DNA from: Eubacteriales bacterium
GTDB taxonomy: Bacteria > Bacillota > Clostridia > Oscillospirales > CAG-272
Direction of reading: 5' to 3'
Assembly (NCBI GenBank): GCA_045577415.1
Contig: JAZNII010000045.1
Coordinates: forward strand, 1,815-65,814
Length of the DNA: 64,000 nucleotides
Position numbers and translations under genes: made by a program. The notes below the pieces were generated by a model, which was not told where the DNA came from, ran no database searches, and saw only the letters and a list, made by a program, of their open reading frames with translations. How positions within the stretch are numbered: position 1 is the stretch's first letter; each line of letters opens with the position of its first letter. Shown here piece by piece: positions 23,532 through 37,395 of the stretch.

Positions 23532-24827
23532 ATGAGTTCACTTTGGCGCGAAGACGTTAAAATGCCCGAATTCGGAACTTTGAATAAAAACGAAAAGACC
23601 GACGTTCTCATCATCGGAGGAGGCATCGCGGGAATTTTGACGGCGCATTTTTTGAGAGAGCAAAGCATCGACTATATCCTCGTTGAGTCGGGTCGCCTCT
23701 GCGGCGGCGTGACGGGAAACACTACGGCGAAGCTGACCCTATCTCACGGATTGATATATAGCAAAATAGTTAAGGAATACGGTGTGGAGCGGGCGCAGTC
23801 CTATCTCCACGGCAATATTTCCGCGCTGAAAAAGTACGGAGAGCTGTGTAAAAATATAGATTGCGACTACGAGGTCAAGGACAATTATGTTTACTCCACC
23901 GATGACCGAAAAAAGATCGAGGACGAGGTGAAAACACTTCAAGACATCGGTTACAAAGCTGACTTTTGCGAAAATCTGCCTCTGCCTATAAAGACGGTTG
24001 GCGCGGTCAGATGTGGTGGACAGGCGCAGTTTCATCCGCTGAAGTTTTTGTCGGAGATCGCAAAGGATCTGAACGTTTTTGAGCATACCCACATTGAAAA
24101 CGTTGAGGGGAACAGGGCGTTTACCGAAGAATATCACATCGACGCGAAAAAAATAATAATGACGGCGCATTTTCCCTTTATAGACCGTCACGGCGGTTTT
24201 TTTCTCAAAATGTATCAGCACCGCTCCTACGTTTTGGCGCTTGATGGAGCAAAAGACCTTGACGGGATGTACGTGGACAAAAATAAGACGGGTCTTTCAT
24301 TCAGAAATCACAAAAATCTGTTGCTTTTGGGCGGCGGAGGACACAGAACGGGAAAGCAGGGCGGCGGATATAGCGAGCTTCGCACCACAGCAAGGCTTTA
24401 TTATCCCGACGCTGAAGAAAAATTTCATTGGGCGGCGCAGGACTGCATGACCCTTGACGGGATGCCCTACGTCGGTCAGTATTCAAAATGCACCCCCGAT
24501 ATGCTTGTAGCTACGGGATTTAACAAGTGGGGAATGACAAACGCTATGATGTCGGCAATGGCGCTTTGTGACGCCGTACTTGGAAAGCAAAACGAGCTTT
24601 TGGATGCTCTGAACCCATCAAGATGTATACTTCACCCACAGCTTGCAATCAACGGCTTTGAGACCCTTACAAACATTCTGCGGCCCACCGCGCCGAGATG
24701 CTCTCATTTAGGTTGCGCCCTCAAATGGAACAAGGCTGAGAAGAGCTGGGACTGTCCCTGCCACGGCTCGCGTTTTGCCGAGGACGGCAGAGTGCTTGAT
24801 AATCCCGCCAACGGAAAATTGAAGTAA
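23532..24827 (+). CDS. FAD-dependent oxidoreductase with a C-terminal Rieske [2Fe-2S] domain (YhfW-like)
   Basis: VLIIGGGIAGIL dinucleotide fold; C-terminal CSHLGC..x..CPCHGSRF Rieske motif. Confidence 0.85.
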   Translation: MSSLWREDVKMPEFGTLNKNEKTDVLIIGGGIAGILTAHFLREQSIDYILVESGRLCGGVTGNTTAKLTLSHGLIYSKIVKEYGVERAQSYLHGNISALKKYGELCKNIDCDYEVKDNYVYSTDDRKKIEDEVKTLQDIGYKADFCENLPLPIKTVGAVRCGGQAQFHPLKFLSEIAKDLNVFEHTHIENVEGNRAFTEEYHIDAKKIIMTAHFPFIDRHGGFFLKMYQHRSYVLALDGAKDLDGMYVDKNKTGLSFRNHKNLLLLGGGGHRTGKQGGGYSELRTTARLYYPDAEEKFHWAAQDCMTLDGMPYVGQYSKCTPDMLVATGFNKWGMTNAMMSAMALCDAVLGKQNELLDALNPSRCILHPQLAINGFETLTNILRPTAPRCSHLGCALKWNKAEKSWDCPCHGSRFAEDGRVLDNPANGKLK

Positions 24828-24856
24828 CAAGGTATGTTAATAATAGAGTAGTTTCA

Positions 24857-24891
24857 TAAAAAATCAGGCGACCAACGGTCGCCCGATTTTT
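24857..24891. terminator. bidirectional terminator
   Basis: A-run, stem ATCaGGCGACC / GGTCGCCcGAT, T-run. It lies between convergent genes. Confidence 0.7.
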
Positions 24892-24895
24892 ACAA

Positions 24896-25441
24896 TTATT
24901 CTTCTTTACCCGTGAGATACTTTTTATAAAGACCGCAGGGATTGAACTCGGTGCATCTGCCTCCGCGGTAGGAGCACATAGGCTCAAGAGTGCCGACAAA
25001 TTCGGGACACTGCTCCTCAACAAGTTTGACGATCTCCGCCATGACCTTGCGGGTGTATGGGTCTGCCTGCATACAAAGACGGCGGCGAGCCATAAACATA
25101 AGCTCCTGAGCGTTTATGTACATCATGTGAGAAACGGGAGAGTCCTGAGGCGCCTTTGTGCGGTCATAGTTCTCCTGACGGTCGTTTCTCTGGCTCTGAA
25201 CGAAATGAGTAACACCGATAAAGTGACGGCAAAAGTGAACCGAAACGTAATAGGGTATCACCATCTTGATGCAGAAATTAAGAGTTCTTATGGGACTATG
25301 CTCACTTAAAAGCAGCTTGTGTCTCCACTCGGCGGTGGGGAGCTTGGTGCTTGTCTTTCCCACGGTGTTGAGGGTGCAGAGCTTGCAAAGCATCCAATCT
25401 TCTTCGGTGGGGTATTTTAAAAGCTCAACGGTGAAATCCAT
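24896..25441 (-). CDS. divergent ThyX-like (flavin-dependent thymidylate synthase family) protein
   Basis: 181 aa. HSPIRTLNF ... FCRHFIGVTHFVQSQRNDR aligns by eye with the ThyX HxSPxE...RHRxxSxxxxSxR region, but the second Arg of RHR is Phe and the protein is short. Confidence 0.5.
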   Translation of the reverse strand: MDFTVELLKYPTEEDWMLCKLCTLNTVGKTSTKLPTAEWRHKLLLSEHSPIRTLNFCIKMVIPYYVSVHFCRHFIGVTHFVQSQRNDRQENYDRTKAPQDSPVSHMMYINAQELMFMARRRLCMQADPYTRKVMAEIVKLVEEQCPEFVGTLEPMCSYRGGRCTEFNPCGLYKKYLTGKEE

Positions 25442-25536
25442 ATTTTTCGTCTCCTAAATACAAATTTGGCTCTTATTAGACTAATTTTAGCACATTACTT
25501 CACCTAAGTCAAGAGGAATATGGCTCAATAACCCAT

Positions 25537-26649
25537 TTATTCCTCAAATTTCGCTGCGACCTGCTTGAGAAGCTCTCGGATGGGGAGCTTCTGAGGGCAG
25601 ATCTCCTCGCAAGCTCCGCAACCGATGCAGTCACTTGCCTTGCCTTTGTCCTTGGTGAAAATTCCGTAATAAAATTCCGAATTCCAATTTTTCCACTTAT
25701 TTTTCTCATTCATACAAGCGAAAAGCTTGGGGATAGAGATGTCCTTAGGGCAACCGTCCACACAATAGCGGCAGGAGGTGCAGGAGATCAGATTTTTGCT
25801 CTTTATGATCTCGCAGACCTTTTTGACTGCGTCAAGCTCGCCCTCGTTAAGGGGCTTGAAATCGACCATAGAGGAAAGATTGTCGCGCATCATATCCATA
25901 TTGCCCATACCTGAAAGCACCATAAATATACCCTCGTGACCTGCGGCAAAGCGGATGGCATAGCTTGCGTGACTTCCACCGCCAAGAGCATCAAACACCG
26001 CCGCCGCGTCGTCAGGAAGATTGACGAGACTTCCACCCTTGACAGGCTCCATAACGATCACAGGCTTTCCGTGTTTCCGACAGGTCTCAAGACAGAGTCG
26101 GGACTGAACCGATGCATCCTCAAAATCGAGATAATTGAACTGTATCTGTACCACCTCGATCTGAGGGTATTCTGTAAGTATTTCGTCAAGAATGTCTGCG
26201 GTGTCGTGGAAGGAGATGCCGAGATGACCTATCTTGCCTTCCTTTTTAAGCTCAAGGCAGGTCTCGTAAGCCTTACAAGCCTTATATTTTTGAAAATTCG
26301 TTCTGTTCTGGGCGTGCATGAGGTAAAAATCGAAGTAGTCAACGCCGCAGATCTTCAGCTGTTCCTCAAATAAAGGACGGATGTCGTCTTCCTTTTCAAA
26401 ATGAGGGTTCGATAGCTTGTTGGTGAGGACGTAGCTCTCGCGAGGATAGCGGGATGCGAGGCATTCGCGCAGAGCAACCTCGCTCTTGCCGCTAAGATAG
26501 CCATGAGCGGTGTCAAAATAGTTGAATCCTGCCTCTAAAAAGGCATCTACCATCAGACAGACCTCGGCAGTGTCCACCTCGCCGTCCTTCATAGGAAAGC
26601 GCATACAACCAAATCCAAAATTCTTTTTTACTTTATCAAAAATTGCCAT
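25537..26649 (-). CDS. aldo/keto reductase with a C-terminal 2x[4Fe-4S] ferredoxin-like domain
   Basis: AKR core (FDTAHGY, GISFH) plus CTSCRYCVDGCP and CIGCGACEEICP. Confidence 0.88.
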   Translation of the reverse strand: MAIFDKVKKNFGFGCMRFPMKDGEVDTAEVCLMVDAFLEAGFNYFDTAHGYLSGKSEVALRECLASRYPRESYVLTNKLSNPHFEKEDDIRPLFEEQLKICGVDYFDFYLMHAQNRTNFQKYKACKAYETCLELKKEGKIGHLGISFHDTADILDEILTEYPQIEVVQIQFNYLDFEDASVQSRLCLETCRKHGKPVIVMEPVKGGSLVNLPDDAAAVFDALGGGSHASYAIRFAAGHEGIFMVLSGMGNMDMMRDNLSSMVDFKPLNEGELDAVKKVCEIIKSKNLISCTSCRYCVDGCPKDISIPKLFACMNEKNKWKNWNSEFYYGIFTKDKGKASDCIGCGACEEICPQKLPIRELLKQVAAKFEE

Positions 26650-26839: not shown

Positions 26840-28102
26840 ATGCCTGAGATAAATATTGCTCTGGATATTTTCGGAATTATAGCCACTTTAATAATATTTT
26901 TCAGTTGTCTTGAAGAAAGAATAAAAAAAGAAACTAAATCCAACAGCTTCTTACTTTTGATGGCGACAATTATTCTGACACTTGTGGCAGATATATTCGG
27001 TTGGATAGGAGAAGGAAATACCGCCCTTGCGGTTATGACTGTGGTGGGAAATACCGTGGCGGCGTGTCTTGGATATCTTGCTATATTCTTTTTCATTCTG
27101 TATCTGAAAGAAAACCTATATCGAAGAAGTCCTGCGGCAAGAGCTATCGTTATAATATTTGCGGTGGTATGCGTGGCATCGATAATAATGGTTTCGCTGA
27201 ATTGCTACCACGGAACCTCCTATCATATAGACGGAGATGGTCATTTCGTCCACGGAGCCGATAAAGTGCTTATGATGACACATCTTATTTTCCCCCTGCT
27301 TTCCTTCCTCACAATATTCCTTATGGTGTTGACGGCAAGGGGCATAAGCGCAAAGGACAGACTGATATACCTGTCTTATGCAGTATTTCCCACGGCAGGA
27401 GTGATTTTTGACTACACCGTTCACGGCTGGTCGCTGACCTATATCGGCTTGGTCATAAGCACTATGATAATCTTTACCAGCATTTATCTGCAAAAGCGCA
27501 GACTGATACAAGAGCAGAGAGCCGCGCTTATGATGTCGCAGATAAACCCTCATTTTATGTATAATACCTTGACAACCATCGCATCGCTTTGCGAGATAGA
27601 CCCCAAGCAGGCAAAAACTCTTACCATCGAATTTTCCTCATTCCTTCGTCAGAATCTGGACACGATGACCTCATCAGAGCTTATCCCCTTTGAGCAGGAG
27701 CTTAGACACGTGGGGTGCTATCTGAAGATAGAAAAGGCAAGATTTGCGGATAAGATAAACGTGGTCTACGCCATAGATTGTAAGAATTTTGTGCTTCCCG
27801 CCCTGACTATTCAGCCCTTGGTTGAGAACGCTGTCAAGCACGGAATTACCAAGAAAAGGGGCGGCGGAACCGTAAAAATATCCACGTACCGTACTGAAAA
27901 ATCTTACGTAGTGGAGATAAAGGATGACGGCGTTGGCTTTGATGTCGAGATGATGCTGGCTAATAATGACCGAATAGGCATCAATAACGTCCGAAGCCGC
28001 TTGAAGGATATGTGCGGCGGAACTCTTGAGATAAAGAGCAAGGTTGGAGTCGGAACACGTATAACGGTTGAAATACCGGACAACAAGAGGAACAGAATAT
28101 GA
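26840..28102 (+). CDS. sensor histidine kinase, LytS/YehU (His_kinase) type
   Basis: About 6 N-terminal TM helices, QINPHFMYNTL H-box region, ENAVKHG N-box, KDDGVGF and GIGINNV G-boxes. Confidence 0.88.
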   Translation: MPEINIALDIFGIIATLIIFFSCLEERIKKETKSNSFLLLMATIILTLVADIFGWIGEGNTALAVMTVVGNTVAACLGYLAIFFFILYLKENLYRRSPAARAIVIIFAVVCVASIIMVSLNCYHGTSYHIDGDGHFVHGADKVLMMTHLIFPLLSFLTIFLMVLTARGISAKDRLIYLSYAVFPTAGVIFDYTVHGWSLTYIGLVISTMIIFTSIYLQKRRLIQEQRAALMMSQINPHFMYNTLTTIASLCEIDPKQAKTLTIEFSSFLRQNLDTMTSSELIPFEQELRHVGCYLKIEKARFADKINVVYAIDCKNFVLPALTIQPLVENAVKHGITKKRGGGTVKISTYRTEKSYVVEIKDDGVGFDVEMMLANNDRIGINNVRSRLKDMCGGTLEIKSKVGVGTRITVEIPDNKRNRI

Positions 28103-28902
28103 ACATTTTAGCAGTTGATGACGAATATTACGCATTAAAGCTTATAGAACAGGCAATCAGAGAGTCTGTGTCGGGAGCGGTGCTTTATCTTTGTGACGAG
28201 CCTCAAAGCGCGATCGAGACGGCGAGAAAAAATAAGATAGACGTAGCTTTTTTGGACATACACATGCCGGGAATGAGCGGAGTGGAGCTTGCCAAGGCGC
28301 TAAAGGACATAAATCCCAAGGTCAATATAATATTCGCGACGGGATTTTCCGAATATATGAAAGACGCTATCGATATTCGCTCCAGCGGATATCTTCTCAA
28401 GCCCGTGACCGCGGCGGCGGTCAAGACCGAGATAGAAAATCTGCGCCACCCCGTGGAATGGGATAGCGAAAAGAGAGTCAGAGTGCTGACCTTTGGAAAC
28501 TTTGAGGTTTTGGTCGATAACGTACCCGTAAAATTTGAGAGAAAGCAGTCCAAGGAGATATTTGCCTACCTAATAGATAAAAGAGGTACGTCTGTGACCT
28601 ACGCCGAGCTTGCCTCGGTGATATGGGAGGACGGCGAATACGACCGCGTGAGACAGAAAAATCTTCAGGTCTACGTGGCGGGTATGGTAAAGGCTCTCAA
28701 TAACGTGGGCGAGCAGGATCTGATACTCAAGGGCAGACAAGGAATACTTGTTAATACCGCAAAGATAGATTGCGACTATTACCGTTTCCTTGAGGGTGAC
28801 GTAAGAGCAATAAATTCTTTCACGGGTCAGTATATGAGCGCCTATTCCTGGGCGGAATTTACCGTTGGGTATCTTGAAAGCCGTGTACATAATATGAAAT
28901 GA
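28099..28902 (+). CDS. response regulator with a winged-helix (OmpR/SARP-like) output domain
   Basis: Receiver domain (ILAVDDE, FLDIHMPGMSG, GYLLKP) plus LTFGNFEVLV..KEIFAYLI..YAEL winged helix. Its start overlaps the kinase stop (ATGA). Confidence 0.85.
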   Translation: MNILAVDDEYYALKLIEQAIRESVSGAVLYLCDEPQSAIETARKNKIDVAFLDIHMPGMSGVELAKALKDINPKVNIIFATGFSEYMKDAIDIRSSGYLLKPVTAAAVKTEIENLRHPVEWDSEKRVRVLTFGNFEVLVDNVPVKFERKQSKEIFAYLIDKRGTSVTYAELASVIWEDGEYDRVRQKNLQVYVAGMVKALNNVGEQDLILKGRQGILVNTAKIDCDYYRFLEGDVRAINSFTGQYMSAYSWAEFTVGYLESRVHNMK

Positions 28903-28914
28903 AAACAAAAAACG

Positions 28915-28957
28915 AAAATTCGGCGTGTTCCGCTTTTGTGGGGCGCGCCGAAATTTT
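28915..28957 (+). terminator. terminator-like hairpin after the regulator gene
   Basis: AAAATTCGGCG ... CGCCGAAATTTT with a 20-nt loop, followed by a T-rich tail. Confidence 0.45.
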
Positions 28958-28997
28958 CTTGAAAATTTTTTGCATTTTTTTAAAAACTTCCCGAATT

Positions 28998-29030
28998 TGT
29001 AGTCGTGATGTAGTCATAGGGTGATAAAAT
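28998..29030 (+). promoter_or_regulatory. candidate promoter of the SipW-type operon with an 11-bp-phased direct repeat
   Basis: Extended -10 TGaTAAAAT (29022-29030) with no good -35. Direct repeats TGTAGTC at 28998-29004 and 29009-29015 cover the -35/spacer region. Confidence 0.45.
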
Positions 29031-29126
29031 ACGCTTAGAAGGCTGGAAAAATATGCTTTCAAAGGGAAAAAAGCCTAATAGGGAGGGCTTTAAACAAAAA
29101 TTTTTTCTACAAAGGAGAAAAACAAA

Positions 29127-29648
29127 ATGAAAAAGAAAAGAACACTTATCGTTGGTCTGCTTCTCGTAGCAGCACTTGCACTCGGCATCGGTTATGCAGG
29201 ATTTACCTCCGATCTTTCTCTCGGCGGTAAAGCGATCCTCGACGGCGTCAGCGAATCCAAGGTAGTTATTAAGAATATTGAGATCGAAGCCGGAAACAGC
29301 TCAGGCGATCACATTGTTGCAACCCCCGGCAACTTGAATACTGAGGCGGCTACCGTTGACGTAACAGGCTTCAAGGCACCCACCGATTACGCTATTCTTA
29401 CCGTTACCGTTGCTAACCCCCACCCCTTTGCAGTTAATATGACTGCTCCCAACCTTGTAATCAACGACAACGATATCGCAGGCGGCACGTATTTCGATAT
29501 TACTCTTGATAATTCCACACCTATTCCTACCTCTATCGGAGCCGAGGATGAGATTACCTTCCAGATCAAAGTTGAGGCTAACGTAATTACTCCCGACGCT
29601 CACACCACCAGCTTCACCGTAACCTTCAGCGCATCCGCCGGAACCTGA
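29127..29648 (+). CDS. small secreted protein with a SipW-class (TasA/camelysin-like) signal peptide; candidate fibre subunit
   Basis: 173 aa. Its n- and h-regions end in ALGIGYAGFTSD, compared with TasA GGTWAAFND. The mature part is about 145 aa, beta-rich and Cys-free. RBS AAAGGAG. Confidence 0.7.
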   Translation: MKKKRTLIVGLLLVAALALGIGYAGFTSDLSLGGKAILDGVSESKVVIKNIEIEAGNSSGDHIVATPGNLNTEAATVDVTGFKAPTDYAILTVTVANPHPFAVNMTAPNLVINDNDIAGGTYFDITLDNSTPIPTSIGAEDEITFQIKVEANVITPDAHTTSFTVTFSASAGT

Positions 29649-29674
29649 TAGAATACTGAAAGCAAATTCGGTTC

Positions 29675-29706
29675 TTAATTAAAAGATTAATTGAAGAATT
29701 AATTAA
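29675..29706 (+). repeat. three TTAATT[AG]A palindromes at 12-bp spacing
   Basis: Copies at 29675-29682, 29687-29694 and 29699-29706, in the 84-nt gap between the first subunit gene and the peptidase gene. Confidence 0.6.
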
Positions 29707-29732
29707 AAACTAAAATGAAAGGAGGACCGTAA

Positions 29733-30854
29733 ATGAATAAGGATAAGAAAAAACTGTACGTATTATCTGTAATAACGCTTGCGGTTCTCCTTGTCACTCT
29801 CTTTGTGGACGTAGGAAGCAGCAGAATAGTTACAGCTTGCCTGTTGCTTCCTCTGACCCTTATAACCGTTCTTCTTATAAAGAAAAGAAGCACGCTGTCC
29901 ATTAATAAAAGAGAGATCTTGCTGCTTGTGTCGGTGTTGGCGACCGTATACGTCATCGCAAGAGAGATGACAGGACTGTATTTCAAGGTCTACCAAAATC
30001 CCTATTACGTAGACGAAGAAATGATAATCAAGTTCATCATACCCTCGGCGGTGATAATAGTTACGGTAGAGATCGTAAGATACGTATTTTTGGCGCAGAA
30101 AAACCGATTCGTTGACGTTATCACTTTTCTGTCCTGCGTTGTAGCTGAAACTCTGATGTACTCAAATATCGCGGGCATCAGGAACTTCAACAATTTTATG
30201 GATCTCGTCGGAATGACGCTTTTCCCTGCAATCAGCGCAAACGTTTACTACCATTACATTTCCAAACGCTACGGAGCGTTACCGAATATCGCATTTCGTC
30301 TTATTACCTCGATGTATATTTACTTCATACCCTATACAACGGCTATGACGGATGCGCTTTCATCATGTATTAAAATCGTTTTGCCGATAATAATGCTTGC
30401 ATTTATCTCGGCGCTTTACTCAAAAACAAAGAAAAACGCCGTGCAGAAGGGAAGAAAAACCTCTGTCGTCGGCACCGTCCTGATGACCGTCGTTATAATT
30501 CTTGTAGCGATGCTTATCTCTTGTCAGTTCCGCTTCGGCGCGCTGGTAATAGCGACTGAAAGCATGACGGGCGAGATAAACAAGGGCGATATGATCATAT
30601 ACGAGCAGTACGATGATCAAACAATAAAGGAAGGACAAGTAATTGTCTTTTCGCAAAATGATGCAAAAATAATTCACAGAGTAGTTAAAATTGAAAATAT
30701 CAATGGCGAGATCAGGTATTACACAAAGGGTGATGCCAATGAGGATCTCGACGTGGGATATAGAACTGAAGCAGACATAGTCGGCTTGACCGACGTGAAG
30801 ATCGCTTATATAGGTTATCCGACTCTGTGGCTCAGACAACTAATACCATCTTAA
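29733..30854 (+). CDS. archaeal/ER-type (SipW-like) signal peptidase I fused to an N-terminal polytopic membrane domain
   Basis: The last ~120 aa carry ATESMTGEINKGD (Ser), KIIHRVV (His) and YTKGDANE (Asp), as in SipW/Sec11-type peptidases. They are preceded by about 250 aa with about 7 TM helices. Confidence 0.75.
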   Translation: MNKDKKKLYVLSVITLAVLLVTLFVDVGSSRIVTACLLLPLTLITVLLIKKRSTLSINKREILLLVSVLATVYVIAREMTGLYFKVYQNPYYVDEEMIIKFIIPSAVIIVTVEIVRYVFLAQKNRFVDVITFLSCVVAETLMYSNIAGIRNFNNFMDLVGMTLFPAISANVYYHYISKRYGALPNIAFRLITSMYIYFIPYTTAMTDALSSCIKIVLPIIMLAFISALYSKTKKNAVQKGRKTSVVGTVLMTVVIILVAMLISCQFRFGALVIATESMTGEINKGDMIIYEQYDDQTIKEGQVIVFSQNDAKIIHRVVKIENINGEIRYYTKGDANEDLDVGYRTEADIVGLTDVKIAYIGYPTLWLRQLIPS

Positions 30855-30874
30855 GAGAAAGGAGGTTACCATAA

Positions 30875-32704
30875 ATGTCGGAAAAAGAAAAGAAAAGGCG
30901 CTCGAAATACCGTAAAAACCGTGAAAAACTGATATTTACTCAAACGGTCATAGCAATAGTGGTGGCTCTGGCAGTGCTGATCTCGGCGCTTGTTGCCTAT
31001 CAGCTTGAAAAGACCTATTACATCGGCTACCGTGAGGGCGGAAATATTGATTACAACGTTTTTTTGAAGGAAAACGATTTTTACGAGGAAGATTTTCTTG
31101 AAAAGGATCAGTCCTACGTCGCGTCTCTGATAGATAAGATCATAGCCGATTTCAGCTATCAGATCGACATGGATACCGATGACGTAAATTACCGTTATTC
31201 CTATACCATCAAGTCCCGTCTTGAGATAATAGACAATACTTCAAGCGTTGCTATCTTCAATCCCGAATACGAGCTTGTAAGCGTTCAGAATAAGTCGCAA
31301 AGCAGCTCCAACAGATTGACGATCAACGAGATCGTGGTCTTGGATTACGATCAGTACAACAGTCTTGCGGGAAATTTCCTCTCAACCTACGACCTTACCA
31401 ATACAACAAGTAATATCGTAGTCACGCTTGAGGTTGACGTCCTCAGCGATTGTAACGCTTTTTCGGGCAGCAGCGCTGAAACGTATTTCTCCGAATTACG
31501 TATACCTCTTACAACAAAAACAGTTAATATCAAGATGACCTCCACCATTCCCGATGATGAGGCGAAGATGATCGCCTGCACCAGAGGCGCCGGTAGCGAG
31601 GTGTTCAAGACTACAGCTATCGTGCTGGCAGTTGTGGACGCAATTCTTATATTGATACTCGTAGCGTTTATCTTCTTAACAAGAACAGAAGATATTACCT
31701 ACACAGCGCGCGTCAAAAAGATCGTTTCCCAGTATAAGTCCTACATCCAGAGGATAAAGAACATATTCGATACCTCGGGATATCAGGTCATTGTGGTTGA
31801 AAGCTTCGATGAGATGCTTGAAATACGCGATACTATTCAGGCTCCTATACTGATGCACGAAAATGATGACAAGACCTGCGCGAAGTTTATTATTCCTACG
31901 GATACTAAGATTCTCTATCTCTTTGAGATAAAGATCGAGGGTTATACCGAGCCTGAACCCGATCCCAAGCCCGATCCTCAGCCCACTACTATCGTTAAGC
32001 CCAACATAACCAACGTTGTGCGTCCCGTGGTAAAGGTAGTGGTTACTCCCAAGGTGACCGAAACTAAGGCTGAAGAAATCGAGGATAGCTCCGAACCCGA
32101 GGCGGAGATCGAAACCGTGGTTGAAGAACCCGAAATTTTGGTCGATGCGGCAGAGGAGATCCCCGAAGTTGCGGTTGAGACCGAAATCGAGGAAGAACCC
32201 GTCGAGGAAGAACCCGTCGAGGAAGAACCCATCGAGGAAGAACCCATCGAGGCAGAACCCATCGAGGAAGAACCCATCGAGGCAGAACCCGTCGAGGAGG
32301 AACCCGTCGAGGAAGAGCTTGACATTGAGGACATACTTGACAGTATTCCCGAGGTCGCGGAAACTGCTGAGGAGCGGTTGATAGTTGAAGCTCCCGGAGT
32401 TGACGCTATCGATGTTGTATGGCAGGAAAGAAAAGAGAAAAGATACCGTTACGATCCCGACGGAAACACGGTTGACGCGGGAGACGTAGTTCTCGTTCCT
32501 ACCAGAGACGTTGCAAGCGACAAGGACGTTGTTCGCGAGGCAGAGGTAGCAAGAGGGAACTATAAGGTAGATCCCTCAGAGCTTGAAACTCCCCTCAAAA
32601 AGATCATCGGCGTTGTCAGACGTAAAGCAGAAAAGGCTTTTGTCGCAATGATAACTCCCGACGAAAAAGAGCTTGAGGAAAACACCGATAATTCTGAAAA
32701 TTAA
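30875..32704 (+). CDS. bitopic membrane protein (DUF5305-like architecture) with an acidic EEEP[VI] repeat tail
   Basis: 609 aa: TM1 (aa ~20-43), extracytoplasmic domain of ~200 aa, TM2 (aa ~247-268), cytoplasmic region with P-rich and (EEEPV/I)n repeats. The DUF5305 assignment rests on architecture only. Confidence 0.6.
   Translation: MSEKEKKRRSKYRKNREKLIFTQTVIAIVVALAVLISALVAYQLEKTYYIGYREGGNIDYNVFLKENDFYEEDFLEKDQSYVASLIDKIIADFSYQIDMDTDDVNYRYSYTIKSRLEIIDNTSSVAIFNPEYELVSVQNKSQSSSNRLTINEIVVLDYDQYNSLAGNFLSTYDLTNTTSNIVVTLEVDVLSDCNAFSGSSAETYFSELRIPLTTKTVNIKMTSTIPDDEAKMIACTRGAGSEVFKTTAIVLAVVDAILILILVAFIFLTRTEDITYTARVKKIVSQYKSYIQRIKNIFDTSGYQVIVVESFDEMLEIRDTIQAPILMHENDDKTCAKFIIPTDTKILYLFEIKIEGYTEPEPDPKPDPQPTTIVKPNITNVVRPVVKVVVTPKVTETKAEEIEDSSEPEAEIETVVEEPEILVDAAEEIPEVAVETEIEEEPVEEEPVEEEPIEEEPIEAEPIEEEPIEAEPVEEEPVEEELDIEDILDSIPEVAETAEERLIVEAPGVDAIDVVWQERKEKRYRYDPDGNTVDAGDVVLVPTRDVASDKDVVREAEVARGNYKVDPSELETPLKKIIGVVRRKAEKAFVAMITPDEKELEENTDNSEN
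32189..32323 (+). repeat. 15-bp in-frame tandem repeat (8 units plus a partial unit)
   Basis: GAGGAAGAACCC[G/A]TC units encode EEEP[V/I]. Variants are GAA/GCA/GAG at codon 2 and GTC/ATC at codon 5. Confidence 0.9.
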
Positions 32705-32732
32705 TTAATAACACATAGAAAGGAGAGTGTTT

Positions 32733-33833
32733 ATGAAGCTTTGGTTAAAAATAATATGCGGAATAGCACTCTCCTGTATGTGCTTATTCGCCTGCATAGG
32801 CTACGCGGGATTTACCTCAAATATGACCATGTTAGGAACTGCTACGTCCGAGCCTCCCGAAGGAGTATTTATTACCAACATAACTTCGGTGGGAACCAAT
32901 AATGCTACCGCGGTAGTCAACGGATACAGTATGACCGTTGTGAACAGTACTGTCAATCTCGGCAATAATACTAACTCCACGCTGACACTTACAATAACGG
33001 TGTTTAACAACACAACGGTAGATCACGGCTATAACGCTATGATATATACCGTAGGTGAGACAACCTACGATAACGAAACTATTGTAGTTGAGCCTCAGAT
33101 TGAGAGACGAACGGTGGTCGAGGCGCAGGATTATCTTACCTTTGACGTTATCGTATCCTTCAAGAGCGGTGTTTCTATTACGAACAGACAGCTCAATTCC
33201 GTAATTACCTATGAGTTTTTGCCACTTGATGAAATACCCGAGGACGAGGACGAGATAGCCGTCAGCGGAGTTTTGGGACAATTCAAGAATATCCTTAACA
33301 ATAACGTTGTCGGAAATCCCAATAGCTACGGTCAGTTGATCACCCAAATGGATGATTATAATGCTAACGACCGTCACAATGATTCTTATATTGGTAACGT
33401 TGACGGTGCTTCGGGAGAAGACGTGACTATTCTCGGTGAACTTTTCCAGGGTCAGCTATCATTGAACATTAACGGAACGGATACTCCCGTAACGCTGATG
33501 ATAAAAGAGAAAGATGTTGACGGAAACTCAGTCAATGGAGATGAAATGACGATTTATATGACGACTGATGATCTGCAAAAGCAGAATTCTGGTTGGTTTT
33601 CTCAGCCGGAATATGCACCCGTATACGCCGCAGTATTCCGAAAGGTAACGCTTGAGGACGGAACCACGACGTGGGAGCAGATAGGTGATATGTATCTTGG
33701 CTCGGCAGATATCAAGAGATACAACGGTATGCCGGGAGACGGATCCTTCGATACCGATAACTGGAGACTTGTAACCGAGAACGGTACACGTACCAGCACA
33801 ACCATTCAGAATATTATTCAAAATCTTGAATAA
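32733..33833 (+). CDS. large secreted paralogue with the same SipW-class signal peptide; candidate accessory or tip subunit
   Basis: 366 aa. The signal region ends in ACIGYAGFTSN. The first ~140 mature aa parallel the 173-aa protein (VFITNITSVG / VVIKNIEIEAG; LTFDVIVSF / ITFQIKVEA), followed by a ~200-aa extension. ATG at 32733 with AAAGGAG 7 nt upstream. Confidence 0.7.
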   Translation: MKLWLKIICGIALSCMCLFACIGYAGFTSNMTMLGTATSEPPEGVFITNITSVGTNNATAVVNGYSMTVVNSTVNLGNNTNSTLTLTITVFNNTTVDHGYNAMIYTVGETTYDNETIVVEPQIERRTVVEAQDYLTFDVIVSFKSGVSITNRQLNSVITYEFLPLDEIPEDEDEIAVSGVLGQFKNILNNNVVGNPNSYGQLITQMDDYNANDRHNDSYIGNVDGASGEDVTILGELFQGQLSLNINGTDTPVTLMIKEKDVDGNSVNGDEMTIYMTTDDLQKQNSGWFSQPEYAPVYAAVFRKVTLEDGTTTWEQIGDMYLGSADIKRYNGMPGDGSFDTDNWRLVTENGTRTSTTIQNIIQNLE

Positions 33834-33834
33834 A

Positions 33835-33863
33835 GAAAAAAGGCTCGAACAGAGCCTTTTTTC
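33835..33863. terminator. bidirectional terminator (SipW-type operon / pepT)
   Basis: AAAAAAGGCTC gaaca GAGCCTTTTTT. Confidence 0.75.
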
Positions 33864-33879
33864 TTTGCAATTTAAAAGT

Positions 33880-35094
33880 TTAAATCTTTGCCACGTCAAG
33901 AATTATTCTTTCAACTATATCAACGACCTTTTCGAGCGACTCAACGGGAAGATACTCAAATCTCGAGTGGAAATTCTCTCCGCCCGTGCAGATGTTGGGG
34001 CAGGGCAGACCCATAAAGGAAAGTCTCGCTCCGTCAGTGCCGCCTCGGATGGGAACGATCTCGGGTTCCACTCCTACCGCTTTCATAGCGGCGACGGCAC
34101 GGTCTATGGTATACATGTTTTTGTCTATGATCTCCTTCATGTTGTAGTAGGAGTCCTTGACGGTGACGACGCACGAGCCTGCGCCGTATTTTTCGTTGAT
34201 CTTATCGGCAACGGCGGCAAAGACCGCCTTTTTTTCTTCAAATTTCGATCTGTCGTGGTCGCGGATGATGAAGAACAGCTCCGCGTTCTCACAATCTCCC
34301 TTCATATCGGTCAGATGGAAGAAGCCTTCATATCCTTCGGTCTTTGCGGGGATCTGATCAGCGGGGAGCAGAGAATTGAAGTCTATAGCCATAAGTGCGG
34401 CATTCTTCATCTTGTCCTTCGCGCTTCCCGGATGGATCGACACGCCGAAAAATTCCGCCTTTGCCGACGCGGCGTTGAAATTCTCGTATTCAAGCTCGCC
34501 AAGACCGCCTCCGTCAATGGTATAAGCGTAGTCCGCGTCAAATTTTTCCACGTCAAAGTGGTCGGCACCGCGACCTATCTCCTCGTCGGGAGTGAAGCAG
34601 ATCTTTACGCAACCGTGTTTTTCTCCGCTTGCGATAATTCTCTCGATCGCCGAGACGATAGCGCAAACGCCCGCCTTGTCGTCAGCACCCAGCAAGGTGG
34701 TGCCGTCGGTAACGATAAGATGATTGCCCACGTAGCGGTTCATTGAGGGATACTCCTCGGGGGTGAGATAAATGTCCTTTTCATCGTTGAGACAGACCGC
34801 GCCGCCTTCGTATTTGACGATCTTTGTCTTGATAGGCGCATCGGCGCAAGCGTCGGAGGTGTCAACGTGGGCGATAAGACCTAAAGTGACGCTACAATCG
34901 GTATTCGCGAGGAGCGTTGCATAAAGATAGCCCTTGTCGTCAAGCTCAACGTCTGAAAGTCCTAATTTAGTCAACTCCTCGGCAAGATAGCGGCTGAAAA
35001 CCAACTGTTTAGCGGTGCTGGGGACGGTCTCACTTGACTCGTCCGACATCGTGGGAAAGGAAACGTATTTTAAAAATCTCTCTGCAATATTCAT
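33880..35094 (-). CDS. pepT: peptidase T (tripeptide aminopeptidase, M20B)
   Basis: MNIAERFLKYV..PST..Q N-terminus, GADDKAG, DEEIG and GGTDGA motifs. Start at 35094 with a GGAGA RBS. Confidence 0.92.
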   Translation of the reverse strand: MNIAERFLKYVSFPTMSDESSETVPSTAKQLVFSRYLAEELTKLGLSDVELDDKGYLYATLLANTDCSVTLGLIAHVDTSDACADAPIKTKIVKYEGGAVCLNDEKDIYLTPEEYPSMNRYVGNHLIVTDGTTLLGADDKAGVCAIVSAIERIIASGEKHGCVKICFTPDEEIGRGADHFDVEKFDADYAYTIDGGGLGELEYENFNAASAKAEFFGVSIHPGSAKDKMKNAALMAIDFNSLLPADQIPAKTEGYEGFFHLTDMKGDCENAELFFIIRDHDRSKFEEKKAVFAAVADKINEKYGAGSCVVTVKDSYYNMKEIIDKNMYTIDRAVAAMKAVGVEPEIVPIRGGTDGARLSFMGLPCPNICTGGENFHSRFEYLPVESLEKVVDIVERIILDVAKI

Positions 35095-35278
35095 TCTGTT
35101 TCTCCATTTTTTAGATTGCGAGCTTATCAGGCTCACGTTTACGTCCTGAAAGGTGTTTGTTTCTATAATTTTATCACAAAAAGCATTTTGTGTCAATAAT
35201 TATGCGGCAGATATTGATTTTTGTCGACAAATATGTTAGAATAAAGCTGTATAATTTTAATCGGATAGGAGATATAAA

Positions 35279-35836
35279 ATGAACATGACCGAATTTTTAG
35301 ATATGCTGAGAAATATCAGCCCCATTCTCGTTTGCCTTTTGGTTTGCGGAGCGAAGATAATCGAGATTACCATTCAGTCCCTAAAGACCTGTATGATGGT
35401 CAAGGGTCAGAGACTTAAGGCGGCAGGACTTGGATTTGTAGAGTGTATGATCTGGGGTCTGGTTATCTCCACTCTTATAGGCACTCTCGGAAACGATCCT
35501 CTGCTTCTCGTATTCTACTGCGTGGGTTACGCTACGGGACTTTTCCTTGGCTCAACTATAGAGAGCAAGATCGCCCTCGGCACATCCAACCTTGAGCTTA
35601 TTGCAAGCGACGAAAGCACAAAGAAGATCACCGCATATCTCAAGGAGCGCAATATGGGATATACCGTATTTGAAGGTCACGGCTCCAAGGACAAGATGAA
35701 TATGATCTTCATCGTACTCTCCCGACGCGAAACTCCCAAGGTGCTTAAGGAAATAAGAAGCTCATGTGACAATAAGGTCTTCGTGGTTGCCAGCGAGGTC
35801 AGTAAGTACGCAGGCGGCTACGGAATGGTAAAATAA
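35279..35836 (+). CDS. UPF0316/DUF2179-family membrane protein
   Basis: 185 aa. Three TM helices plus a C-terminal DUF2179-like domain (YTVFEGHGSKD). Confidence 0.75.
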   Translation: MNMTEFLDMLRNISPILVCLLVCGAKIIEITIQSLKTCMMVKGQRLKAAGLGFVECMIWGLVISTLIGTLGNDPLLLVFYCVGYATGLFLGSTIESKIALGTSNLELIASDESTKKITAYLKERNMGYTVFEGHGSKDKMNMIFIVLSRRETPKVLKEIRSSCDNKVFVVASEVSKYAGGYGMVK

Positions 35837-35886
35837 GAGACAGATAAGTTTCGAGCTTGATCAAATTATAAAAGTGAGGTTTGGCT

Positions 35887-37395
35887 ATGAAAAAATACGT
35901 TCTTGCCCTCGACGAGGGAACGACAAGCGCGAGAGCGATACTTTTTGACAAAAACTCAAATATTGTTTCAATGGCTCAGCACGAGTTTCCGCAGTATTAC
36001 CCCCACCCCGGTTGGGTGGAGCAGGAGCCTATGGAGATATACGCTAATCAGTATGCGGCTTTGACCGAGTGCATCGCCAAGAGCGGCATCGATCCCGAGG
36101 AGATCGCAGCGGTTGGTATCACCAATCAGCGTGAGACGGTCGTGGCTTGGAACAAGACCACGGGAAAGCCTATCTGCCGCGCTATCGTCTGGCAGTGCAG
36201 AAGAACTGCGGATATATGCCGAGAGCTTGAGGAAAAAGGCTTTGGAGACTATATAAGAGAGACCACGGGACTTCGTATCGACCCATATTTCAGCGGCACG
36301 AAGATCAAGTGGATACTTGACAACATCGATGGCGCGAGGTCTCTTGCCGAGAGTGGCGAGCTTTTGGTGGGAACGGTGGACACCTGGCTTGCATGGAAGC
36401 TGACCGAGGGCAGAGTTTTCGTCACCGACCGCACCAATGCGTCGAGAACCATGCTCTGCAACATACATACTGGCGAGTGGGACGAAAAAATGCTTGAAAT
36501 TCTTGATGTCCCGAAGAATATTCTCCCCGAGATAAAGAGCAGCAGCGAGATATACGGATACTTTGAATGTATGGGCGCAAGTCTGCCTATATCGGGTATT
36601 GCGGGCGACCAGCAGGCAGCTCTTTTCGGTCAATGCTGCTTTGATAGCGGAGAGGCTAAGAACACCTACGGTACGGGTTGCTTTTTGCTGACCCACACGG
36701 GCGAGAGAGCGGTTGAGAGCCGTCAGGGATTGCTTACCACTATCGCCGCGGGAGAGTGCGGCAGACCTATTGAATACGCTCTTGAGGGCAGCGTTTTCGT
36801 GGGAGGTGCCATTATTCGTTGGCTTCGCGACGAAATGAAGCTGATCCACGATTCTCGCGACAGTGAATATTTTGCTCGCAAGGTAGAGAATAGCGGCGGA
36901 GTTTATCTCGTTCCTGCCTTTGCAGGACTTGGTGCGCCCCATTGGGATATGCACGCAAGGGGAACCGTCGTGGGTCTTACCTCGGGTACGGGAAAAAATC
37001 ACATTATCCGCGCCGCTCTTGAATCAATAGCATATCAAACCGAGGACGTTATCTCCGCAATGAACGCCGATATGGCGGAAATAGGCGGAGAGGGAGTCAA
37101 GGAATTAAAAGTAGACGGTGGAGCATCGGCAAACGAGCTGCTTATGCAGATGCAAAGCGACTATTCGAGAATAGAGGTCATCCGCTCCTCAAATCCCGAG
37201 GCGACCGCTGCGGGCGCGGCGTACCTCGCGGGTCTTGCCGTTGGATTTTTCGGGAGCAGAGATGAGCTTAAACGGCTTTCTTGCGAGAACAGACGCTTTA
37301 CCCCGAAGATCAATGCCGAAGCGCGTCAAAATGCCCTTGACGGCTGGCGCAGAGCGGTCAAGGCGTGCAGAGTATTTACCGAGACGGAGGAATAA
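35887..37395 (+). CDS. glpK: glycerol kinase
   Basis: [15 protein letters not shown] and [10 protein letters not shown], full FGGY kinase length. ATG at 35887 (GAGG 7 nt upstream). Confidence 0.95.

Follow-up and report, generated by a model that had tools for sequence, protein, structure and literature searches.

A 64,000-nucleotide stretch of the genome of a Eubacteriales bacterium (contig JAZNII010000045.1; this whole stretch is called the window below) carries six co-directional genes, delimited by two strong terminators, which probably form a fibre or matrix system of the AbpX type, within the TasA superfamily; we put the probability of this placement at about 0.7. The genes encode, in order, a sensor kinase, a response regulator and four proteins that we term P3 (173 amino acids, aa), P4 (a peptidase of 373 aa), P5 (a DUF5305 protein of 609 aa) and P6 (366 aa). 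We favour the AbpX-type placement because three components point to it: the subunit, the accessory protein and the peptidase, whose odd membrane domain is included in the match. An earlier reading, made from the sequence alone, had proposed a clostridial analogue of the Bacillus tapA-sipW-tasA locus, in which secreted subunits are processed by a private peptidase. The analogue with its private peptidase and subunits is supported by the work described here, though its closest relatives lie in the AbpX branch and not in tapA-sipW-tasA.

AbpX of Pyrodictium abyssi is an acidic subunit of 163 aa that assembles into donor-strand fibrils of solved structure (PDB 9SJ2 and 9RHP); it has homologues in Bacillota, and the associated signal peptidase I has ten membrane helices (10.64898/2026.01.04.697558). 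Also common at AbpX loci are tip proteins, minor subunits that resemble AbpX and a DUF5305 protein termed "SPase (signal peptidase) accessory", and histidine kinases are often present at the bacterial ones (10.64898/2026.01.04.697558). The locus in the window shares with them a small acidic beta-sandwich subunit that is homologous, a signal ending G-x-[G/T]-Y-A and followed by an amphipathic strand, a peptidase of matching length in which a polytopic domain is fused to an S26B domain, a DUF5305 protein, a further subunit with the shared signal, and a nearby kinase and regulator. The components that the sequence-only reading had singled out as non-canonical were all found; it is their status that changes, a polytopic peptidase, a DUF5305 protein, an extra subunit and a linked kinase being the norm in AbpX-type loci. 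The accompanying remark that no characterised example was known is likewise out of date (10.64898/2026.01.04.697558; PMC7395162).

For comparison we examined two bacterial AbpX loci, L087 (GCA_009711765.1) and L089, each of which encodes two AbpX-like subunits, a DUF5305 protein, a polytopic peptidase of 400-403 aa and a HisKA_3/GerE two-component system; L087 and a near-identical copy of it, L088, also encode SLH-domain proteins.

The subunits and the signal peptidase

The P3 gene (29127..29648, + strand) encodes the putative major subunit, a 173-aa precursor from which predicted cleavage after GIGYA24 would release a mature protein of about 149 aa with an isoelectric point of 4.12 and 12.1% Asp plus Glu. 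P3 matches no Pfam or NCBIfam model, and its assignment to the AbpX family is derived from profile-profile alignment and a structural model. An exhaustive profile search with an AbpX alignment gathered 1,441 relatives, 144 of which were compared by hhalign with 79 small subunits of the P3 type, signals having been removed from both sets. The two families aligned at 96.9% (E 1.5e-10) over 138 columns, and at 97.1% (E 6e-11) when the donor strand was also removed; these real comparisons scored 64-69, as against 6-10 for shuffled controls (0.2% or less) and 18.6 for a reversed control (3.3%). The depth of the AbpX profile mattered: a single AbpX sequence aligned with P3 through the signal and strand only (52%), and five close AbpX sequences aligned over the whole domain at 62%. 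By this measure P3 is a homologous, if divergent, member of the AbpX family of beta-sandwich proteins within the TasA superfamily. An AlphaFold2 model of P3 has a beta-sandwich core with a predicted local distance difference test score (pLDDT) of about 90; residues 28-40, just after the signal, are modelled as unstructured, as would fit a strand in need of a partner. Fibril assembly in the AbpX family goes by donor-strand complementation and often depends on Ca2+. FliW matches in six of 28 P3-family members (for example P0024 and P0026, at residues ~96-127) were set aside as noise, since they cover 30 residues and reach 15 bits against a cutoff of 130.

The signal is much better conserved than the mature part: in 78 small subunits its last 24 residues average 63% identity, as opposed to 24% in the mature protein. 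The sequence-only reading had drawn attention to the string IGYAGFTS in both secreted proteins; it is indeed there, and P3 and P6 are the only open reading frames (ORFs) of the window that contain it. What homologues conserve is its first part: G[IV]GYA is near-invariant among the 78 small subunits and is kept in the large-subunit homologues as well, whereas GFTS is local to the lineage of the window. In P3 the signal ends ALGIGYA and the mature protein would begin GFTSDLSLGGKAI; the family pattern is G[IV]GYA and then x[LVF][ST]DxLx[IV]xG. Signals of the AbpX family end GAGYA, GVGYA or GxTYA, followed by xW[ST][ED]xLx[IV], that of P. abyssi AbpX ending AIGLTYA and continuing, after cleavage, with QWSETLSLSATI (10.64898/2026.01.04.697558). 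At the second position after the predicted cleavage the 78 sequences have Leu (31), Val (22) or Phe (9), and at the fourth Asp (29) or Glu (6); P3 of the window has Phe at +2, Ser at +4 and Asp at +5. This resembles the donor strand expected of AbpX, with an aromatic residue at +2 and an acidic one at +4, without reproducing its W-x-E/D signature.

P4 (29733..30854, + strand) is assigned as a dedicated signal peptidase from its match to TIGR02228 and its homology to the polytopic enzymes that bacterial AbpX loci encode. The match to TIGR02228 (sigpep_I_arch, the archaeal/Sec11-type signal peptidase I) covers residues 245-367 and reaches 82.4 bits, above the cutoff of 51.85, which bears out the suggestion of a Sec11/SipW-type S26B domain, and the three motifs on which that suggestion had been founded, ESMTGE, IIHRV and TKGDAN, are all found in the protein. 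The catalytic layout has Ser in an SM motif (S277-M278), His rather than Lys as general base (H315-R316) and conserved Asp residues; S277, H315, D334 and D340 are each kept in at least 96% of 79 homologues. The equivalog model of Bacillus SipW, NF046067, gives 48 bits on P4, below its cutoff of 190, and on these scores P4 is SipW-like in type without being a SipW orthologue. About eight predicted membrane helices (residues 1-240) precede an anchor helix and the S26B domain (245-367), which the positive-inside rule places outside the cell because of the N-terminal MNKDKKK and the KTKKNAVQKGRK loop ahead of the last helix. An AlphaFold2 model of P4 has about nine helices, at low confidence (pLDDT 55, from an alignment of 21 sequences), and was too poor for a fold search.

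The membrane domain of P4 is itself conserved, with invariant residues E113, R116, P165, N170, G181 and P218. A profile of it found no relative among PDB sequences or in Pfam, and a CPBP/Rce1-like or exosortase-like identity is unsupported by these searches. Its relatives are in the AbpX loci. The whole P4 family aligned with the L087 and L089 peptidases at 99.5% (E 1.5e-22) over 332 columns, and the membrane domain by itself at 94.5% with a score of 57, shuffled controls scoring 12-20; the motifs E..R and P....N are kept between the two groups, and the intramembrane polar residues E113, R116 and N170 are conserved from the P4 clade to the bacterial AbpX loci. The peptidase whose gene adjoins abpX in P. 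abyssi (380 aa) has the same polytopic-plus-S26 layout.

P6 (32733..33833, + strand; the ORF has a further in-frame GTG at 32727) is a candidate minor or tip subunit. Its N-terminal domain of ~128 aa is homologous to P3, large and small subunits aligning by hhalign at 95.3% over 119 columns, and it has the shared signal end; in the ~210 aa C-terminal to that domain Pfam found nothing. Mature P6 is acidic like P3 (isoelectric point 4.05, 13.5% Asp plus Glu). The accessory protein P5 (30875..32704, + strand) matches DUF5305 (PF17231) at 32.5 bits, cutoff 29, the family against which the sequence-only reading had proposed that it be checked. That reading had also called the 609-aa protein bitopic; it has instead two predicted membrane segments (24-42 and 249-267), which would flank an extracytoplasmic domain and be followed by a long acidic cytoplasmic tail, and the two-segment architecture agrees with the description of DUF5305 proteins at AbpX loci (10.64898/2026.01.04.697558). 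The P5 gene lies directly 3' of the peptidase gene in nearly all loci. The C-terminal part of P5 has no Pfam match; within the segment that encodes the tail lies a 15-bp tandem repeat (32186-32316, 8.7 copies, 92% matches) specifying (I/V)EEEP units, and homologues range from ~360 to 1,150 aa, so that the tail is highly variable.

A conserved cassette in gut Clostridia

To see how widely this gene set occurs we scanned one genome per species and found at least 154 genomes with a P4 relative; the best 80 of the 154 loci were kept and 79 of them examined. (Direct searches gave 40 relatives of P3 and 2,327 of P4.) All 80 come from metagenome-assembled genomes (MAGs) of uncultured Clostridia, Eubacteriales, Oscillospiraceae or Christensenellaceae, many of them from the gut of goat, sheep, yak or deer and a small number from the human gut. 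The polytopic peptidase lies within the operon in the 79 loci examined. Loci whose P4 is at least 53% identical to that of the window were grouped as clade A (43 loci) and the other 36 as clade B, and gene order was scored over those with enough flanking sequence. A small subunit is encoded just upstream of P4 in 39 of 40 clade A loci and 30 of 32 in clade B, and a large subunit downstream in 30 of 30 and 20 of 23 respectively; the kinase and regulator genes lie upstream in 28 of 31 loci of clade A and 1 of 25 of clade B. The cassette stands in differing genomic contexts from locus to locus, and the synteny of the four structural genes, on which the sequence-only reading had staked its proposal, is kept in dozens of genomes with different flanks.

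A sister clade (L047-L084, P4 less than 52% identical) keeps the order small subunit, peptidase, DUF5305 protein, large subunit and is without the kinase and regulator genes, and also without the promoter repeat and leader hairpin described below; it must therefore be regulated differently. Some loci carry additional subunit genes: L049 (4844-6962, 9365-11677) has three tandem small-subunit paralogues and a large one of 770 aa, and L080 (11841-13115, - strand) a second pair of DUF5305 and large-subunit genes on the opposite strand. The surroundings of the window cassette (23532-26649 and 33880-37395) are common to a Eubacteriales MAG, JAZSRA010000012.1, whose peptidase is 94% identical; the genes so shared encode a DAO/Rieske oxidoreductase, an aldo-keto reductase with Fe-S domains, an M20 peptidase, a DUF2179 protein and a glycerol-kinase-like FGGY protein. 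On this evidence the window belongs to an uncultured species closely related to the source of that MAG.

Regulatory genes, promoter and leader RNA

The P3, P4, P5 and P6 genes each have an AAGGAG or GGAGG site 6-9 nucleotides (nt) 5' of the start, and the gaps between them are 84, 20 and 28 nt; the ORFs, their common direction and their strong ribosome-binding sites are all where they had been placed from the letters. The two hairpins taken to bound this unit are also strong, each being followed by a T-run. One, revealed by a terminator scan at 28914..28958 (+ strand; fold -30.7 kcal/mol, z -6.7), is a putative intrinsic terminator that follows the regulator gene and sets the regulatory genes apart from the structural operon; the other, read from the sequence at 33831..33867 (+ strand; -21.8 kcal/mol, z -6.9), would close the operon and is bidirectional in form, with an A-tract as well as a T-tract. 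A possible partial terminator between the P3 and P4 genes was rejected (z -1.5, not conserved).

The kinase (26840..28102, + strand) comprises an N-terminal multi-pass membrane domain (PF16927, 7TM, 35.6 bits), a LytS/YehU-type His_kinase domain (PF06580, 79.3 bits) and a HATPase domain (PF02518, 45.8 bits), all above cutoff, and is the LytS-type enzyme that had been recognised from the sequence. The regulator gene (28099..28902, + strand) overlaps the kinase gene by 4 nt. Of its description as a winged-helix response regulator the receiver is secure (PF00072, 73.9 bits); the winged helix is probable, Trans_reg_C being matched below threshold (20.8 bits, cutoff 26.2).

Between the first terminator and the P3 gene is a direct repeat, TGTAGTC-N4-TGTAGTC, in an 11-bp register (28998..29015, + strand), which has no other match in the window. 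Each of 43 loci has a single copy, invariably upstream of the small subunit. The repeat is confined to clade A, the clade with the kinase and regulator; neither clade B nor L077, whose kinase/regulator pair is a different one, contains it. An extended -10 element, TGaTAAAAT (29022..29030, + strand), begins 6-7 nt after the repeat and is conserved as TG-n-TA-n-AAT in an alignment of ~30 loci. Neither in the window nor in this alignment did the promoter contain a recognisable -35 box; the repeat itself occupies the -35 position, where it is probably the operator to which the regulator binds. Because promoters activated by response regulators classically have an 11-bp direct repeat at -35, we infer that the regulator would act as an activator.

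The transcript would start with a leader of about 90 nt (29036-29126), in which two structures are predicted. The first is a hairpin (29070..29091, + strand), identified with a covariance model, R1, whose loop, AAUAGGGA in the window and GUUAGGGAA in the family consensus, is conserved as (G/A)UUAGGGA(A) over a stem that varies between loci yet stays paired. R1 has one strong match per locus in 31 loci, and the window copy is its best match within 28000-34000. Five of the six pairs change on both sides; 0 of 500 shuffled alignments reached the observed values and controls in which the alignment was slid collapsed, figures to be read with the proviso that the alignment was fitted to the R1 model, which favours the structure somewhat. 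RNAalifold applied to a MAFFT alignment of the leaders had missed the hairpin owing to a 1-nt indel in the loop, a difficulty that the covariance model solved. Rfam gave no match to the leader at the family gathering score. The hairpin occurs in clade A and not in clade B.

The second structure, from a fold of the window leader (29101..29122, + strand), pairs a conserved U-tract (29101-29108) with the Shine-Dalgarno sequence of P3. GGAG is paired with a probability of 0.89, which drops to 0.43 on shuffling of the upstream sequence, and the probability is above 0.5 in 32 of 32 loci; the P3 ribosome-binding site is thus predicted to be sequestered by the U-tract. A GGA-loop hairpin beside a ribosome-binding site that itself contains GGA resembles the target sites of CsrA, and a U-tract masking such a site resembles the fourU thermometers. 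The window contains no csrA gene.

Alternative readings and the proposed mechanism

Several results weigh against an AbpX-type fibre. Five bacterial AbpX-family controls score 20.7-24.7 bits on TIGR04088, the model of SipW-cognate signals (cutoff 19), and so pass it; P3, P6 and all 38 family members tested do not match it at E up to 10, and P3, P6 and 28 family members do not match Peptidase_M73 (PF12389) at E up to 1. Two of the models against which the sequence-only reading had proposed to check the proteins, SipW-cognate signal and Peptidase_M73/camelysin/TasA, thus fail to recognise them. Just after the predicted cleavage, position +2 is mostly Leu or Val, or Phe as in the window, instead of the conserved Trp of AbpX; the acidic residue of the window P3 is at +5 and not +4; and the TG-x-LDV that follows the strand in AbpX is missing. 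A Foldseek search of the PDB, which includes 9SJ2 and 9RHP, with the P3 monomer model gave no TasA or AbpX among its 50 listed matches, and those that it did list were weak, generic beta-sandwich or pilin structures with E of 2e-3 or more and TM-scores of 0.39 or less; the model includes the signal helix, which has probably distorted the search. A P3-family profile also found no relative among PDB sequences. The P4 membrane domain alone scored against its P. abyssi counterpart at the level of shuffled controls, and its link to AbpX systems is established only through the bacterial AbpX loci. The window locus has no SLH, LPXTG or other anchor gene, unlike the bacterial AbpX loci examined, and the DNA-binding domain of the regulator is weakly identified. 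Further differences are ones of degree or kind: the window subunits are too divergent for BLAST and for NCBI and Pfam models; the two bacterial loci have a HisKA_3/GerE system where the window has a LytS-type kinase and a probable winged-helix regulator; and the promoter repeat and the leader RNA are peculiar to the clade of the window, which is known only from uncultured gut MAGs.

There is an outside chance that P3 and P6 are ordinary surface or secreted proteins—adhesins of the CARDB/DUF11 type or matrix-binding proteins—which have a dedicated signal peptidase and form no fibre. UniRef labels AbpX itself "CARDB domain-containing protein", one P3-family member matches DUF7507 and DUF11, and the Foldseek matches of P3 are, as just noted, generic beta-sandwiches. 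Yet the homology to AbpX extends over the whole domain, and AbpX is a protein whose fibril structure has been solved (10.64898/2026.01.04.697558). A non-polymerising role would also leave aside the amphipathic strand, conserved right after the cleavage site and unstructured in the monomer model, the fact that this strand and its domain are all that P6 has in common with P3, and the fact that the accessory genes of fibre loci are all present.

It is improbable, too, that the kinase and regulator are unrelated neighbours which do not control the fibre operon, although the regulator gene is cut off from the operon by a strong terminator and a distant clade has the operon without them. In clade A the pair adjoins the operon at the frequency given above despite differing outer flanks; the invariant repeat is found in that clade only, and is missing from the locus with a different pair; the promoter lacks a -35 box, as do activator-dependent promoters; and there is a precedent in Clostridium perfringens, where BsaR/S is required for the sipW promoter (PMC7395162).

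The C. perfringens operon, sipW-bsaABCRSD, raises the question whether the window locus could be a direct orthologue of it, or of Bacillus tapA-sipW-tasA/calY, instead of belonging with AbpX. It too is clostridial, and it encodes a SipW-type peptidase of its own, a secreted matrix protein that polymerises and further secreted paralogues in an accessory role (PMC7395162); the two loci also share subunits with a common signal and a two-component system; moreover, bacterial AbpX-like proteins show weak precomputed matches to Peptidase_M73, and their N-termini match the BsaA-family model weakly, far below its cutoff. The differences make orthology very improbable. C. perfringens SipW is described as a putative signal peptidase only, with no extra membrane domain, no DUF5305 gene is described, and the operon itself includes the genes for kinase and regulator (PMC7395162). 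The C. perfringens subunits are of the BsaA family, whose model, TIGR04090, matches neither P3 nor P6 nor any of the 38 family members tested. The Bacillus tapA-sipW-tasA and B. cereus sipW-calY loci share with the window a dedicated S26B peptidase, an N-terminal donor strand exposed by cleavage and, in TapA, a minor subunit; but TasA is a larger protein, of the Peptidase_M73 family, the processing enzyme is a plain SipW that lacks the eight-helix domain and whose equivalog cutoff P4 does not reach, and DUF5305 is not part of the operons described. No TapA (YqxM) match was found in Pfam and NCBIfam scans of the six window proteins. Regulation in Bacillus goes through SinR and Spo0A and is not known to involve an adjacent two-component system.

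Also comparable are the haloarchaeal tafi loci (TafA-G) and the Thermococcales DUF1102 loci (PMC11821415, PMC12337348). They too have several small strand-donating subunits, and in the former TafD is needed to process TafA and a DUF5305 protein, TafG, co-occurs (PMC11821415); but they are archaeal, use Tat export and a peptidase with four membrane helices and two outside domains, and draw their subunits from other families (TafA/TafE, DUF1102). That P3 is a type IV pilin-like protein, keeping its hydrophobic N-terminal helix as filament core, can be dismissed almost entirely: the best Foldseek match of the full-length model is the AAP pilus subunit of Sulfolobus acidocaldarius (E 2.4e-3), but at a TM-score of 0.27 and a root-mean-square deviation of 14 Å. 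The basic N-terminus is not followed by a prepilin motif such as G/A-F-T-L-I-E, neither the locus nor its relatives encode a prepilin peptidase, an assembly ATPase or a platform protein, and the conserved small-x-Ala site at the helix end has an S26 peptidase gene next to it.

For an AbpX-type system we infer the following course of events, including the cleavage position, polymerisation, regulator binding, the function of the eight-helix domain and the roles of the leader RNA and the DUF5305 protein. The membrane kinase would sense an envelope signal and phosphorylate the regulator, which would bind TGTAGTC-N4-TGTAGTC in place of a -35 box and turn on the extended -10 promoter. The leader RNA could add a second layer of control, its GGA-loop hairpin and U-tract masking the P3 ribosome-binding site. 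P3 and P6, with signals ending L-x-L-G-[IV]-G-Y-A, would be exported by Sec and cut after the signal alanine by the outward-facing Ser/His domain of P4, helped by P5. Cleavage would free the amphipathic strand x-[F/L/V]-[S/T]-x-x-L-x-[I/V]-x-G to insert into the open beta-sandwich of the next subunit, and donor-strand complementation of this kind would build an acidic fibre or matrix; P6 may join by the same strand and domain, its extra C-terminal domain serving as tip, nucleator or adhesin.

Two further suggestions, which we make together and tentatively, go beyond this scheme: that the eight-helix domain of P4 could be a recognition and assembly module and not a passive anchor, and that the leader may be a new cis-regulatory RNA which couples translation of the subunit to a CsrA-like protein or to temperature. 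The strong conservation of both signal and membrane domain suggests that the one might be recognised within the membrane by the other. On this hypothesis the domain would bind the h-region L-x-L-G-[IV]-G-Y-A in the membrane, offer the signal to the Ser/His site and pass the newly exposed donor strand to the growing fibre; if that is true, it would act in monoderm bacteria as a polymerase of donor-strand fibres that is embedded in the membrane and resembles an usher.

Parts of the picture are already described for AbpX loci: the peptidase of ~10 membrane segments, DUF5305, minor or tip subunits and linked kinases. New are the size and habitat of the clade, the subunits, which neither the SipW-cognate model of NCBI nor the TasA model of Pfam picks up, and the repeat and leader RNA. 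The system offers several handles—a five-residue signal signature by which substrates can be found, a probable operator repeat with its kinase/regulator pair for work on how matrix production is turned on, a conserved leader RNA and a well-conserved orphan membrane domain—and L087, L088 and L089 form a useful reference set for the AbpX family. Because current models label the subunits "hypothetical", surveys of gut metagenomes are blind to it. TasA-like donor-strand fibres are emerging as a mode of biofilm-matrix formation common to both domains, on evidence from Bacillus, C. perfringens and a few archaea; on the placement favoured here, a large group of uncultured Clostridia of animal guts, with the polytopic peptidase in at least 154 species-level genomes, would carry a complete AbpX-type system.

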